Source of the DNA: Candidatus Micrarchaeota archaeon
GTDB taxonomy: Archaea; Micrarchaeota; Micrarchaeia; Norongarragalinales; SBBD01
Direction: 5' to 3'
Length of the DNA: 64,000 bases
Assembly (NCBI GenBank): GCA_018819225.1
Contig: JAHJQN010000008.1
Coordinates: 32,001-96,000, forward strand
Part shown: positions 39,422 through 45,773 of the stretch, one piece after another
Position numbering within the stretch: the first letter of the stretch is position 1
Layout of the letters: each line of letters begins with the position of its first letter
Notes under the pieces: model-generated
What the model saw: the letters and a program-made list of their open reading frames with translations, nothing else
Database searches by the model: none
Told to the model about the DNA's origin: nothing
Program-made: the position numbers and the translations under genes

Positions 39422-40315
39422 ATGGTCATTGAGTCGATGGTGAGTCCATTGAAAGCGGAAAAGAACCCGCCGGCCATCATGTTGCTGGGATTCACCTTCG
39501 TAACGCTCGCCGTATGGCTTGCGACCGCCGTACTGGAAATCGAGCCGAAAAGCATGATGATGCTGGTATTCGTCGTCATTCCGAGTATTCCGTTCATATT
39601 AAAATTGTTTGAATCCGATGAAATGGCACTCGAAGAAGGACGCGTGCTCGGAAGCCGAACGCTTGCCAAACACTTTTCAGTGATTTTGGTCCTCATCGCA
39701 TACTTCCTTGGAATGACCATTGGATTCACGTTCTGGTACGTGTATTTGCCGGAGGAATTAGCTCATGATGTCTTCTCGATTCAAATTGAGGAACTCAAAG
39801 GCATCAAAGCCATTGGCGCCAACTTGAGCGGGGCGTTCTTGTTCACGCTTACGGGATTAACGCAAAGCGCAGAAACCGGAGCGGCTACCAGTGAAAAATT
39901 CGCCCCCACATTCGAAATCATATTCCTGCATAATTTATGGGTGTTATTTCTTATCATCGCATTTTCGGTGATATACGGTGCAGGGTCCGTATTTATCCTG
40001 GTCTGGAACGCAAGCGTTGTCGGCGTATTCCTAGCGAATTTCGCGCGACAATTCGTATTTCACGAAAGCACGTATACGCTCGCGTCCGGCGTCGGCGTCG
40101 GATTACTTGGATTGATTCCGCACGGATCGTTCGAGTTGTTGAGCTATTTGATCGGCGCGATGGCTGGAGGCGTGTTAAGCGCGGCTATCGTCCGCGGAAG
40201 GTTTTCGCAAGGACGCTTCTGGGAAATCATGCGAGACGTTGCCAAAATGATGGCGTGGGCCATCGTCCTACTCGCATTGGGCGCGTTAGTCGAAAGCGGT
40301 GCCATCGTTTTCTGA
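39422..40315 (+). CDS. SpoIIM-family membrane protein
   Basis: IFLHNL, WNASVVG, LIPHGSFELLSY, GALVES. Confidence 0.85.
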   Translation: MVIESMVSPLKAEKNPPAIMLLGFTFVTLAVWLATAVLEIEPKSMMMLVFVVIPSIPFILKLFESDEMALEEGRVLGSRTLAKHFSVILVLIAYFLGMTIGFTFWYVYLPEELAHDVFSIQIEELKGIKAIGANLSGAFLFTLTGLTQSAETGAATSEKFAPTFEIIFLHNLWVLFLIIAFSVIYGAGSVFILVWNASVVGVFLANFARQFVFHESTYTLASGVGVGLLGLIPHGSFELLSYLIGAMAGGVLSAAIVRGRFSQGRFWEIMRDVAKMMAWAIVLLALGALVESGAIVF

Positions 40316-40398
40316 AAACGAAGTTGGAAAAAATAAAAGAAGGCTTTAAAAGGGCGATATCCCAAAGTGTTTGCCAGTCTCATGTTGGTGGCTCGTTC

Positions 40399-41082
40399 AT
40401 GGCATTGAAAAGTCTTGCGATCATTCCGGATGGGAACCGCCGTTTTGCAAAATCAAATCGTTTCGGTTACCGGAAGGCTTATGCGAAAGGATTCGAGAAA
40501 GTCGAAGAGTTGCTGGAATGGGCCGAGCCTACGAAAATCGAGCGCATCGGGTTCTGGGCGCTCTCCCTCGAAAACTACCAGCAACGCAGCCAACGGGAAC
40601 TCACCATCCTGTTCTCCTTAATGAAACGGCACTTGCGCAAGGCGATCGCCGATAAGAAATACAAGAAAAAAGGCGTGCGCGTCGAGTTCTTCGGAAAACT
40701 CGAGTTATTGCCGAAACACTTGCGCCAATTAATGAAAGAGCTTGAGCATCAAACGCAAAACGGAAAACGCGTGTTAAGCATCGCCGTCGCGTACTCGGGA
40801 CGAGAAGAACTTTTACGAGCCGCCAAACTCATTGCCGTCCATTTTGGCGATAGAGCCGGACAAGCGAAAGAAAGCGATTTCACGAAATACTTGTATATGC
40901 AGCATTCACCCGACTTGATCATTCGCACCGGAGACGTGTCGCGGTTAAGCGGATTCATGCCGTGGCAAACCGCGTACTCCGAACTCTATTTCTCGAAAAA
41001 ATTGTGGCCGTCGTTCACCAAAGACGATTTTCGGGATGCGATGGCGTTCTTCGACGAAACCCAACGACGCTTCGGACGTTGA
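40399..41082 (+). CDS. uppS: cis-Prenyltransferase (undecaprenyl diphosphate synthase family)
   Basis: AIIPDGNRRFA, ALSLEN, YSGREE, PDLIIRTG, RLSGFMPWQ; start at ATG 40399. Confidence 0.93.
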   Translation: MALKSLAIIPDGNRRFAKSNRFGYRKAYAKGFEKVEELLEWAEPTKIERIGFWALSLENYQQRSQRELTILFSLMKRHLRKAIADKKYKKKGVRVEFFGKLELLPKHLRQLMKELEHQTQNGKRVLSIAVAYSGREELLRAAKLIAVHFGDRAGQAKESDFTKYLYMQHSPDLIIRTGDVSRLSGFMPWQTAYSELYFSKKLWPSFTKDDFRDAMAFFDETQRRFGR

Positions 41083-42075: not shown

Positions 42076-42639
42076 ATGCCAGAGCGAATGCAGGTAACTA
42101 TTCGAGAAGCCACTCGCGAAGACTACCCCGCCTTAGCAGAAATCAAGGCAAGAACATTCAATGAAGGACCTTGGAAAGCCGGAGTGACTGCTGAAAAATA
42201 TGTCGCGGGATACCGTAAAGGCGAGCGGAGGAGCACGCGCATGCGACTCGTCGCCGAACAGGACGGAAAAATCGTAGGATTGCTGGAAGGATTTCTATCG
42301 CGAAGAATCGTATTGGAACTACCGCCTCACAAGAGAAAGGATTTGCCGACGCGCGTATTCCATCTCTCCAATTTTATGGTGAACCCCGAAGTTCCGGTTC
42401 GTCAAAGGAATCAGGTATCCTATCCCTTGTGGAGACAATTCCTTAGGAAATTAGAAGGACATCGCGGAATACAAATGCGAACCCTCATGGCAAAAACTCA
42501 TCCGGAAAACTTGCCTGCTCTCCAAATATTTCTGCATAAAGACCCCAAAAGACCCCCGCGATTTCATCACGTTTATACCGGACCCAAGTGGCCGAATCGG
42601 AGGGGAACAAATGTAGCATACTTTGTTCGAGTAGTTTGA
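42076..42639 (+). CDS. GNAT-fold acetyltransferase-like protein
   Basis: IREATREDY, LVAEQDGKIVG, N..AL pattern. Confidence 0.65.
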   Translation: MPERMQVTIREATREDYPALAEIKARTFNEGPWKAGVTAEKYVAGYRKGERRSTRMRLVAEQDGKIVGLLEGFLSRRIVLELPPHKRKDLPTRVFHLSNFMVNPEVPVRQRNQVSYPLWRQFLRKLEGHRGIQMRTLMAKTHPENLPALQIFLHKDPKRPPRFHHVYTGPKWPNRRGTNVAYFVRVV

Positions 42640-42832: not shown

Positions 42833-42840
42833 TTTATATA
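42833..42840 (+). promoter_or_regulatory. TATA box for the five-gene membrane-protein operon
   Basis: TTTATATA about 43 nt upstream of ATG 42883, preceded by three GTTACT repeats. Confidence 0.55.
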
Positions 42841-42882: not shown

Positions 42883-43257
42883 ATGACCAAAGTATCATTG
42901 CAGCAACTAAAAAGTATGGCGTCTAGTCTCCAACAGGAGCCCGAAAAGAAAAGAGACTACCAAATGTTGCCCATGTTTCTTCCCGCAGATATCAGCGACA
43001 AAAAGGGAACGGGAGTCGTCAAAGTCGTAACACGTCAAGGATTCATGAACGAAACCATTGAGAACTGGGTGTTATACAACACGTACCGCGGAGCCACCGT
43101 ATCGCTTGGCGTGCTAGCCTTGATGACGTTCCCGGTCAACGTATACTTAAGCGCGTTATTCGGCATTGGCGCGGGATTCGCGTACGGAAAATTCAAGTTC
43201 AAGGACTTTATTATCAACAAGCAGCTCCGCCACAGGTGGCTGCTCGAAGGAACGTAG
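42883..43257 (+). CDS. Unknown small membrane protein A (paralogue of 43966-44505)
   Basis: LPMFLP...KVVTR...YR plus hydrophobic hairpin. Confidence 0.75.
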   Translation: MTKVSLQQLKSMASSLQQEPEKKRDYQMLPMFLPADISDKKGTGVVKVVTRQGFMNETIENWVLYNTYRGATVSLGVLALMTFPVNVYLSALFGIGAGFAYGKFKFKDFIINKQLRHRWLLEGT

Positions 43258-43271
43258 AAAGGTAAGTACCA

Positions 43272-43655
43272 ATGAACGTCAAGCCACCCTTTCATCAAGA
43301 AACACGGGACACGGAACTCGTCGGCCTGAAAAGCGTTCAGGGCGGTAGTCCGAACCAGCAAGTCCCCATGAAGACCATGACCTACCTTCAGGTCGACCCG
43401 GAAGTCCGGGCCAACATGAGGGGCTCGACGCGTTGGGACTACGTATCCGAGTATATCGGCTACTGGATTGACAACAAACGTTTCTGGGTGCTCGCCGTAT
43501 TGTTTGTGGTAGCGGGAGTGCTGTTATTAGACGTATTCGCACCCGTTGCGTTACTCATGATCGCCGTCGGCGCCAAATACCGAAACATTGCATGGATGGA
43601 CAACTTCATTTACTCGAAGTTCGGAGAATACAGATCGCTCGTATTGGTGGACTAG
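43272..43655 (+). CDS. Unknown small membrane protein B (paralogue of 44544-44852)
   Basis: STRWDYVSEY..YW...RF plus hydrophobic hairpin; AGGT SD. Confidence 0.75.
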   Translation: MNVKPPFHQETRDTELVGLKSVQGGSPNQQVPMKTMTYLQVDPEVRANMRGSTRWDYVSEYIGYWIDNKRFWVLAVLFVVAGVLLLDVFAPVALLMIAVGAKYRNIAWMDNFIYSKFGEYRSLVLVD

Positions 43656-43667
43656 AGGTAGAAAACA

Positions 43668-43961
43668 ATGACCACGATTTGGACTGGAATAAAGGACCCG
43701 AAACCCCGAAGCTGGGTGGGCGGTGAACCCGTCTTGACGACGGATGCCTACGCCCGCGGCGGACCCGTACGGGATTCCAGTTGGATCGTGCAGTTCATGA
43801 GCCTCCTTGAAGATTTCACGCCCATCAAACCCGTACGCGGAGACTTGAACAGCTTCGAGGACGCGATGTTTCGGGTAGGCGTATTCGGTTTGTCTCAGCG
43901 CCAAACCTTCCTGCTCATCACCATCGGACTCGTATACGCGTTATTCGTGATCCTCAGGTAA
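43668..43961 (+). CDS. Unknown tail-anchored small protein C
   Basis: GAGGT SD; single C-terminal TM. Confidence 0.7.
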   Translation: MTTIWTGIKDPKPRSWVGGEPVLTTDAYARGGPVRDSSWIVQFMSLLEDFTPIKPVRGDLNSFEDAMFRVGVFGLSQRQTFLLITIGLVYALFVILR

Positions 43962-43965
43962 TCGC

Positions 43966-44505
43966 ATGAAAAACCCAACGCGCATGCACAGTTTGCAAGC
44001 CATTCGCAACGCAGTGCTCGATGGCAAGGCGCATCCGCATAGTGGACACAAGCACGACCCCTTTTACGGCAGCAAAGATCCCCTTCCGCATGTGGAAGGT
44101 TGTAACCCGCTCATGGACGATTACTTGCGTCCCTCGAGTACTCAGGCCGCAGACAAGATGCCCGAACAAGAAGGAAAACGCTTAATGCCCATGTACTTAC
44201 CCGTTTCTGCGAACAACATTCAAGGAGACGGAACGCCCGTCGAATCCGCGAAGCTGTGGACCAGGGGAAAGCTCATGGACGACGTCGTTAATGAAGACTA
44301 TAAGAACGGGTCAGTGGGAGCCATTTACCGCTCGTACTTCATGGCGTGGGTATGCGTCGGATTAACATTACTCGGCTTGACCATTAGTCCCTACCTGGCT
44401 GCTCCGTTCGCGTACATGGCCGGACAATACTGGAGCGACAAGGACTTGAGCGTCGGCTGGAGTATCCAGTGGTGGAAAGGAAAGACGATTACATACACGG
44501 TATAG
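43966..44505 (+). CDS. Unknown small membrane protein A' with His-rich N-terminal insert
   Basis: MPMYLP...KLWTR...YR plus hydrophobic hairpin; HPHSGHKH. Confidence 0.75.
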   Translation: MKNPTRMHSLQAIRNAVLDGKAHPHSGHKHDPFYGSKDPLPHVEGCNPLMDDYLRPSSTQAADKMPEQEGKRLMPMYLPVSANNIQGDGTPVESAKLWTRGKLMDDVVNEDYKNGSVGAIYRSYFMAWVCVGLTLLGLTISPYLAAPFAYMAGQYWSDKDLSVGWSIQWWKGKTITYTV

Positions 44506-44543
44506 GGATAACGGTGAAAAATACAAGATAGTGGTGAATCAAT

Positions 44544-44852
44544 ATGACGGACAAAAACTACGTGGACCATGTACCGCCCGTGCAAATGACGTCGGTACTG
44601 GCCGACACGAAACAACCGTTCTTGAACATGTCGACGAGGTGGAACTACATCTCGCGCTATCTCGAGATCTGGAAGGAAGGCATCCGGTTCCGCGGGTTCG
44701 CCGTCGTCTCGTTCCTAGCCGGCCTCGTGCTCATCCTATCCATTCCGCTCATGGGCATTCTCGCGTTTGCGGCGGCCGCGTACTTCTGGGAGCTATACAA
44801 GTTCCGACGCCACCGTCTCGAAAGCCAGAGGTCCATCATGATCGGACACTAG
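44544..44852 (+). CDS. Unknown small membrane protein B'
   Basis: STRWNYISRY..IW...RF plus hydrophobic hairpin; GGTGA SD. Confidence 0.75.
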   Translation: MTDKNYVDHVPPVQMTSVLADTKQPFLNMSTRWNYISRYLEIWKEGIRFRGFAVVSFLAGLVLILSIPLMGILAFAAAAYFWELYKFRRHRLESQRSIMIGH

Positions 44853-44952
44853 TCCGAACTCTTTTCTTTTTTCCAGAACAAGGGGGAGCGTACGCTGGTT
44901 CCCGAAACCGGCTCTCACGATTCGCCTCGGCGCTCCCTCCCCATTTTTTTCA

Positions 44953-45773
44953 TTAGATATCCCGAATGTCGTATAATTCCACAAAAGACGGGCGACGCTT
45001 GTAAGTAACAAAACGAAAGGTCATGGCACCCAAACGATTCCTGATCAAATCGCTATTCTTAACGTTTTGAATGAACCGAGTCGCATTACGGATGATGCGG
45101 ATAACTTCCGGAGATTTTCGCAACCTTGTTCTCAGTTCTCTTGAAAGGAATTGCACACGCATTCGTCCCCCCTCGTCAAATACAGGCAACATAAGACCTT
45201 CGATAGGTAAATCTGACTTCGATGGCTTACTCAATTTGATAAAGAATCTCAATGATGAATCTAGCTGAGGTGGCGCATCAATGATTATTTCACCATCAAC
45301 CAATTTATCTTCATCCGCCGGTGTCGGGTGCATGATGGCGATCACATGTTGCGGGTTACCTTCTTCGAGTTCACGCATCCCTTTCCGGAGTACGGCTCGA
45401 ACCAGTTGTTGTACTCGCGCATCCCGTGAGGTTCGCAGACGCAGGGAATCGGATCGTTCTCGTGTTTCCCGACGACTGGCCAAACCTTTCGGTGTCAGAC
45501 GTTGTTCCAAATCACGCAAAACAACTGTCGGTCGCGGCATGGTGGCCCAGTCAAATCGTCGGTAGTGTTTCGGTGCGGCTTCATCCAGTCTAAATAGAAG
45601 TCGCGGTTGTCCCTCGGCATGTTTCAAATTAAATTCTCGGGGTGGTGGTATACCCTATAGGGGGATATCCCATAACCTTTACCGTTCGCCGTCAGTTCTT
45701 CTAATTGATGCAATGCCCACAATTTGGTGACGTGCGGACGTTCCCGATTGAATTCCATGGGCTGCTTAGGCAT
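44953..45773 (-). CDS. Hypothetical Arg-rich protein; frame interrupted near 45647-45663 (candidate BHB intron or pseudogenising insertion)
   Basis: GGAGG SD before ATG 45773; the 49-codon frame joins the 44953-45627 frame if 17 nt are removed (267 aa). Confidence 0.55.

Follow-up and report, generated by a model that had tools for sequence, protein, structure and literature searches.

The window analyzed here, a stretch of 64,000 nucleotides from a Candidatus Micrarchaeota archaeon, contains at positions 42883-44852 of the + strand five closely packed open reading frames (ORFs), all in the same direction, which encode small proteins with a combined length of 629 residues. The proteins were named subunits A, B, C, A', and B' according to the order of their genes. 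Gene 1 (42883-43257) encodes subunit A, of 124 amino acid residues, and has an ortholog at every locus examined. Genes 2 (43272-43655) and 3 (43668-43961) encode subunits B and C, of 127 and 97 residues, respectively. Gene 4 (43966-44505) encodes subunit A', of 179 residues, although public gene calls begin at Met7, position 43984, and gene 5 (44544-44852) encodes subunit B', of 102 residues. The genome that holds the window (G000) comprises 1.37 Mb in 8 contigs and is 90% complete.

From gene 1 to gene 5 the intergenic gaps are 14, 12, 4, and 38 nt, and an operon gap shrinks to 1 nt in the related locus L016. A consensus archaeal TATA box (TTTATATA, 42833-42840, +) was read from the sequence some 43 nt before the ATG of gene 1, and a TATA-like box is found at a comparable offset upstream of the gene A ortholog in 24 of 27 related loci. 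Shine-Dalgarno-like sites (AGGT, GAGGT, and GGTGA) were read around 10 nt upstream of genes 2, 3, and 5, respectively. Downstream, a terminator-like hairpin with a T-rich run (44842-44875, +) overlaps the stop codon of gene 5; the GC hairpin itself spans 44842-44857 and the T-run follows directly 3' of it. The layout given by the original prediction, made from the sequence of the window, of five co-oriented and tightly spaced genes behind one TATA box, most of them with a Shine-Dalgarno site, is thus borne out. One TATA box, one terminator, and tight gaps are best explained by a single transcription unit, as far as this can be read from the DNA. No RNA was found among the sequencing runs listed as matching the operon, and the sole full-length match was a groundwater metagenome, from which this DNA may originate.

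Four of the proteins share a helical hairpin. Subunit A shows a short N-terminal helix, a PMFLP motif, a TR motif, and the hairpin, with a glycine zipper in its second helix and a basic tail ending in LLEGT. In subunit B a TRWDY..EY motif precedes a strongly hydrophobic hairpin, which is followed by the tail KFG..RSLVLVD. Subunit A' begins with a variable His-rich N-terminus, after which come PMYLP, the TR motif, the hairpin, and a tail rich in Trp. In subunit B' the hairpin is preceded by TRW.Y and followed by a basic tail that ends in MIGH. Subunit C is different: its conserved core is acidic (SLLED ... FEDAM) and includes an invariant E48, and the protein closes with a hydrophobic helix at residues 79-97. 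This helix agrees with the earlier description of gene 3 as tail-anchored; however, in distant orthologs it contains Lys and Asn, which makes it a weaker membrane anchor, and because of these residues the C helix may pack against other subunits instead of spanning the membrane alone.

The original prediction had paired gene 1 with gene 4 and gene 2 with gene 5, and had derived the four proteins from one ancestral subunit. Both proposals held. BLASTP aligned gene 1 with gene 4 (E 5e-8) and gene 2 with gene 5 (E 2e-9), and profile-profile comparison raised these similarities to 1.3e-16 for A and A' and 2.6e-18 for B and B'. The two pairs are also linked to each other, A with B at 1.2e-8 (95.6% probability) and B' with A' at 2.7e-7; membrane helices can raise scores of this kind, but these alignments are anchored on the common TR motif. 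At the level of profiles, these links show that A, B, A', and B' belong to one superfamily. In a maximum-likelihood tree of 105 sequences every family forms one clade, and A and A' are joined with an SH-aLRT support of 99. As A groups with A', the simplest history suggested by the tree would be a tandem duplication of an ancestral A-B pair, with C lying between the two copies, that preceded the radiation of the order. The joint clade of A and A', together with the integrity of each family, points to an old duplication of which both copies were retained everywhere.

Gene order in related genomes, which had been proposed as a check, is conserved. The arrangement A-B-C-A'-B' was seen at every one of the 28 loci retrieved, which belong to the same GTDB order of Micrarchaeia and to at least 10 GTDB families, and a hidden Markov model (HMM) of C located this gene between B and A' in 28 of 28. 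The operon is retained over genomes of 0.7-1.6 Mb. With the gene 2 protein as query, a match was obtained in 39 of the 41 genomes sampled from the order, usually with the B' copy around 1.1-1.3 kb downstream. The B profile matched 24 of 25 genomes within the order, and none of the 176 sampled elsewhere in the phylum. The C profile matched all 18 in-order genomes, and outside the order it gave merely two weak matches, each inside a large ORF. Two in-order genomes depart from this pattern: G019 (89% complete) showed no operon match, and G015 (79% complete) has no five-gene operon and carries a divergent two-gene version (L030:743-1685, -), the first protein of which was matched to the B/B' profile with a probability of 95.8%.

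Membrane anatomy was analyzed on family alignments of 24-30 orthologs each (A1 for B, A2 for B', A3 for A, and A4 for A'). In A, B, A', and B' the hairpins are the sole hydrophobic stretches and the N-termini are hydrophilic; no signal peptide or N-terminal signal-like segment was found in a hydropathy scan of the operon proteins. AlphaFold2 models built with the family alignments place the helices of B at residues 54-84 and 90-117, and those of A at residues 51-81 and 87-115 in addition to the short N-terminal helix, with pLDDT >90 across both hairpins. Basic residues are found at both ends of the hairpins and none within the turn of 3-5 residues, so that according to the positive-inside rule both termini would be cytoplasmic. 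On charge and hydropathy, we therefore infer an N-in/C-in topology with a short outer turn. Pre-membrane helices are rich in aromatic residues, and their helical hydrophobic moments range between 0.02 and 0.38, none of them exceeding shuffled sequence. The architecture previously attributed to all four proteins is thus retained in its TR motif, its hairpin, and its lack of a signal peptide, but not in an amphipathic pre-membrane helix.

All four hairpin families share an invariant Arg in the TR motif. Other invariant residues were identified family by family, and together with it they comprise P34, R51, W62, G102, and R118 in A; R54, Y57, E60, G118, and R121 in B; P79, R100, Y121, W165, and W169 in A'; and R32 and R96 in B'. 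Invariant and near-invariant positions cluster at the cytoplasmic membrane border, outside the membrane core. A hydrophobic-Pro motif is kept near this border (PMFLP in A and PMYVP in A', according to the family alignments), as are aromatic residues that follow the TR motif and a single Gly within or beyond the hairpin. A second conserved Arg or Lys is followed by a hydrophobic tail of 5-6 residues which closes the protein; the terminal tails are LLEGT in A, SLVLVD in B, VMIGH in B', and a K-G-K tail in A'.

No family had been recognized for these proteins, and the searches led to the same result. The five operon proteins have no Pfam match at E values up to 1; at E up to 0.1, none was found for 24 members of the C family and nothing credible for 46 members of the B and B' families. 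NCBIfam gave no credible match, PHROGs none at E <0.1, and PADLOC only chance-level matches (E around 1e-3) that span 32 residues of gene 2. No relative was present in IMG/VR or the phage collection. PDB sequences searched by family profile gave nothing beyond a match of A to the CTR1 copper channel, whose E value of 0.031 is within chance for a transmembrane profile. In a comparison of the B+B' profile with 1.84 billion protein representatives we obtained 88 matches, all of 53-165 residues apart from one spurious 533-residue repeat. No fusion to another domain was found among these matches, and no longer or fused members of the families were found. Homologs of A' in a 5.8-billion collection are unnamed or annotated as 'hypothetical protein, Candidatus Micrarchaeota', and carry no Pfam domain.

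Structure comparison gave no confident match to a known complex either. For subunit B, the best Foldseek match in PDB was ArnC (E 0.58, 90 columns, TM-score 0.44 by query length). VIA-align reported Snf7, PspA, and designed hairpins with Z of 8-9, below the level that is meaningful for helical folds; in a shape search of the ESM Atlas the TM against the query did not exceed 0.50, and the best E value among BFVD viral structures was 0.2. Fold searches thus yield generic helical hairpins only. No paper describing the operon was found in the literature, and it cannot be filed under any known kind of system.

The reading that we prefer, if tentatively, is that the operon encodes a hetero-oligomeric membrane platform facing the cytoplasm, which would have a structural role or dock a soluble partner and would be built from a superfamily so far found in one order only. 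Assembly into one hetero-oligomer is suggested because both duplicate copies are kept in a fixed order even in 0.7-Mb genomes; retention of both copies of a duplicate is typical of obligate hetero-oligomers. Its function would lie at the cytoplasmic face, because this is where the invariant residues are located. A, B, A', and B' would each enter the membrane as a helical hairpin of N-in/C-in topology whose outer turn has 3-5 residues, both helices projecting around 15 residues into the cytoplasm, and the small-residue faces of Gly and Ala would permit close packing between helices. The conserved cytoplasmic elements would comprise the hydrophobic-Pro motif, the invariant Arg capping helix 1, the aromatic residues at the membrane border, and the second invariant Arg/Lys with its short hydrophobic tail; these probably interlock the subunits and bind the acidic C. 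The stoichiometric core likely combines C with two pairs of the A-B type, A.B and A'.B'. A surface organelle or a pilus is less likely than such a platform. A role in host contact, which had also been put forward, is not supported by the positive-inside rule and hydropathy, which leave only the short turn of each hairpin outside.

Several points weigh against the platform. No transcript or protein data and no partner protein were found, and the retention of paralogs in one operon is also compatible with separate, co-regulated functions. The topology was assigned by the positive-inside rule alone, and the N-terminal 30-50 residues were modeled with low pLDDT. A complex prediction of A, B, A', and B' from the family alignments, with B' as partner and C left out, gave an ipSAE of 0.01 (mark 0.32), a result that weighs neither for nor against assembly.

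Rather unlikely, but the best surviving alternative, is a hetero-oligomeric channel or pore with two transmembrane helices per subunit, in which A and A' line the conduit, B and B' face the lipid, and the His-rich N-termini of A' bind metal. The hairpins of A and A' have a far lower hydropathy (maximum KD15 of 1.9-2.1) than the B and B' hairpins (2.8-3.0); in A and A' the second helix carries a conserved G/A-xxx-G/A-xxx-G zipper, and Asn is frequent at the outer turn. The His/Gly-rich, low-complexity insert noticed in gene 4 is indeed present, at residues 18-45 of the cytoplasmic N-terminus (window 44017-44100), and inserts of this type may bind metal. At least five His within 25 residues were found in 8 of 24 A' rows, one of which is an over-extended ORF, vs. 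4 of 72 background ORFs, with a maximum of eight. However, the inserts are lineage-specific, and the weak CTR1 match, which would also suit a channel, is at chance level. Furthermore, no conserved polar or charged residue lies inside the membrane span. Apart from this alternative, it was also observed that His-rich inserts turn up occasionally in A or B of other lineages.

In outline, the operon proteins may be compared with the CorA/ZntB 2-TM-GxN channels and with MscL, which are oligomers of two-helix subunits with a cytoplasmic N-terminus, a long helix leading into the first transmembrane helix, a short outer turn, and a second transmembrane helix followed by a basic C-terminal tail. This would be an analogy only, since GxN, a large cytoplasmic domain, and a CorA or MscL Pfam match are all missing from the operon proteins. 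Despite the common Asn, the turn of A and A' has no conserved Gly-x-Asn, and PF01544 was not matched. CorA and MscL are also built from one repeated chain, while the operon encodes four diverged paralogs and a fifth protein.

It is unlikely, to a slightly greater degree, that there is no joint complex at all and that the operon encodes five independent, co-regulated small membrane proteins, stress-responsive or holin-like, with redundant paralogs. Class II holins are small N-in/C-in proteins with two transmembrane helices and basic tails, an architecture that the operon proteins would also fit, and in some genomes of the order a sporadic second locus of two paralogous genes lies beside a TrmB-like regulator. 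Redundant paralogs are usually lost in reduced genomes, but here all five genes are kept in a fixed order at every locus. The PHROGs, PADLOC, and phage searches described above speak against this reading as well, and so does a housekeeping context. A class II holin was rejected as a candidate: the architecture is similar, but no viral relative was found and the housekeeping context is conserved across the order, with no lysis cassette.

We give no more credit to an archaeal membrane machine of a new kind, invented within the order, in which the four diverged hairpin subunits (A.B.A'.B') would form a pseudo-symmetric ring or bundle that C closes or regulates, serving either as a conduit or as the core of a membrane structure inside the cell. 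The proteins may form a ring or pore, as mentioned by the original prediction, but the invariant residues are at the cytoplasmic membrane border and not in the membrane core.

Still less probable is a membrane-shaping scaffold, in which wedge-like hairpins oligomerize and bend the cytoplasmic membrane in the manner of reticulon/REEP, Mic10, or the MamI/MamL-type proteins of magnetosomes. The tight hairpins, with hardly any mass in the outer leaflet and bulky aromatic and basic segments at the inner border, would be compatible with a wedge, and the Gly-rich packing motifs resemble those of Mic10, which, like reticulon/REEP, is a small oligomerizing hairpin membrane protein. However, each helix in the AlphaFold2 models is long enough for a full bilayer span, and the hydrophobic moments of the flanking segments do not exceed those of shuffled sequence, so that there is neither a classical amphipathic wedge helix nor the amphipathic flanking helix of reticulon/REEP. 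The idea of a curvature wedge, also raised earlier, is thus not supported. Mic10 (MICOS) and reticulon/REEP are eukaryotic organelle proteins to which the operon has no sequence or Pfam match. The GxGxGxG of the second transmembrane helix of Mic10 is absent, and helix 2 of A shows instead the consensus AGxxAGxxYG, a GxxxG-type zipper.

A type IV secretion system (T4SS) or Ced-like DNA transfer apparatus, in which the hairpin proteins would correspond to VirB2/CedA1-like pilins and gene 3 to a VirB3/PrgI-like component, is very improbable and was rejected on HMMs, leader peptide, neighbors, PF03135, and topology: although VirB2-type pilins are helical hairpins that are encoded, like VirB2/TrbC/CedA1 with VirB3, along with another small membrane protein, and the top listed row of the ESM Atlas is a T4SS_pilin cluster, its TM of 0.49 is not specific for a hairpin of two helices; the predicted topology is the opposite, with the termini inside the cell; the operon proteins have no leader or signal peptide; no ATPase or partner similar to VirB4, VirB6, or a coupling protein was found nearby in the loci with clustered flanks; and the VirB4 N-terminal domain (PF03135) was not found in the 90% complete G000. 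At the thresholds given above, PF04956 and PF18895 (VirB2/TrbC/T4SS_pilin) were absent from the five proteins and from the 46 B/B' members, and no VirB3, PrgI, or TcpE family of Pfam was found among the 24 C members.

Two other comparisons were made. The polyisoprenyl-phosphate glycosyltransferases ArnC and GtrB, whose C-terminal membrane hairpins gave the best Foldseek rows for subunit B, also combine a juxtamembrane helix with an N-in/C-in hairpin, and the anchors DPM2/DPM3, which serve DPM1, might be considered as a further analogy, but the ArnC match is not significant and the operon has no fused or adjacent glycosyltransferase domain. No GT-A domain was found in any member of the B/B' profile. 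The genome does encode a glycosyltransferase family 2 protein of 231-239 residues, DPM1-style and without a membrane segment (G000:C1:133199-133918; L041:1471-2190, +), and no evidence ties the operon to it. The closest category may be that of the archaeal lineage-specific, co-localized hypothetical families (Meheust et al. 2022, BMC Biol, PMC9258230), which are likewise clade-restricted, unannotated, adjacent, and rich in membrane helices; they represent a category and not a system, and no mention of Micrarchaeota was found in a search of that article.

DPANN genomes are very small, yet five genes without a known family are kept in fixed order by all but one or two of the sampled members of this order. 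Genes so strictly kept in reduced genomes are usually important to the cell. As a small, self-contained module with a clear duplication history, the operon is a tractable experimental target, and a functional result would illuminate archaeal 'dark matter' and could reveal a new design of hairpin-based membrane complex. With almost nothing predicted to be exposed outside the cell, it has at present no bearing on host contact.

The genes flanking the operon are housekeeping genes and vary between loci, so the module appears to be self-contained: uppS, MetAP, NUDIX, and Trm5 are found here, and pyrG, a KaiC-like ATPase, RadA, and Hjc at other loci. The uppS-like cis-prenyltransferase ORF (39937-41082, +) encodes 381 residues, with the Pfam domain only at residues 163-380; its true start is probably a Met near residue 155, and its N-terminal part is likely to be non-coding. 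A link to lipid synthesis, considered for uppS near the operon and for a thiolase/DUF35 beside the two-gene variant of G015, was not supported: HMG-CoA reductase is common across the phylum (110 of 151 genomes) and its distribution does not track the operon. Just upstream of the operon promoter lies a 187-residue ORF (42076-42639, +), and a 224-residue ORF (44953-45627, -) converges on the terminator; neither has a Pfam or PADLOC match. A 49-residue ORF (45624-45773, -) is located directly upstream of the latter. In addition, a 141-residue ORF with a GTG start (44531-44956, +) overlaps gene 5 in a different frame and is probably spurious, since the frame conserved among relatives is that of gene 5.

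No match to the two-gene form was found in G000 with the G015-type query. In the loci where this form is found (L030-L038), each protein has around 150 residues, with the tails DYE.DPV and NWQEFE.RP, and the genes usually adjoin a divergently transcribed gene of the TrmB-like helix-turn-helix type. This more divergent member of the superfamily is a second locus in several operon-bearing genomes and the sole form found in G015. Finally, five loci contain an extra B'-like gene. In four of them, all from one GTDB family, it is located between C and A' (L015:3984-4280, L018:3617-3949, L026:3684-3971, and L027:4011-4292), and in the fifth it follows A' (L021:3563-3847). These extra copies show short branches near the center of the tree.

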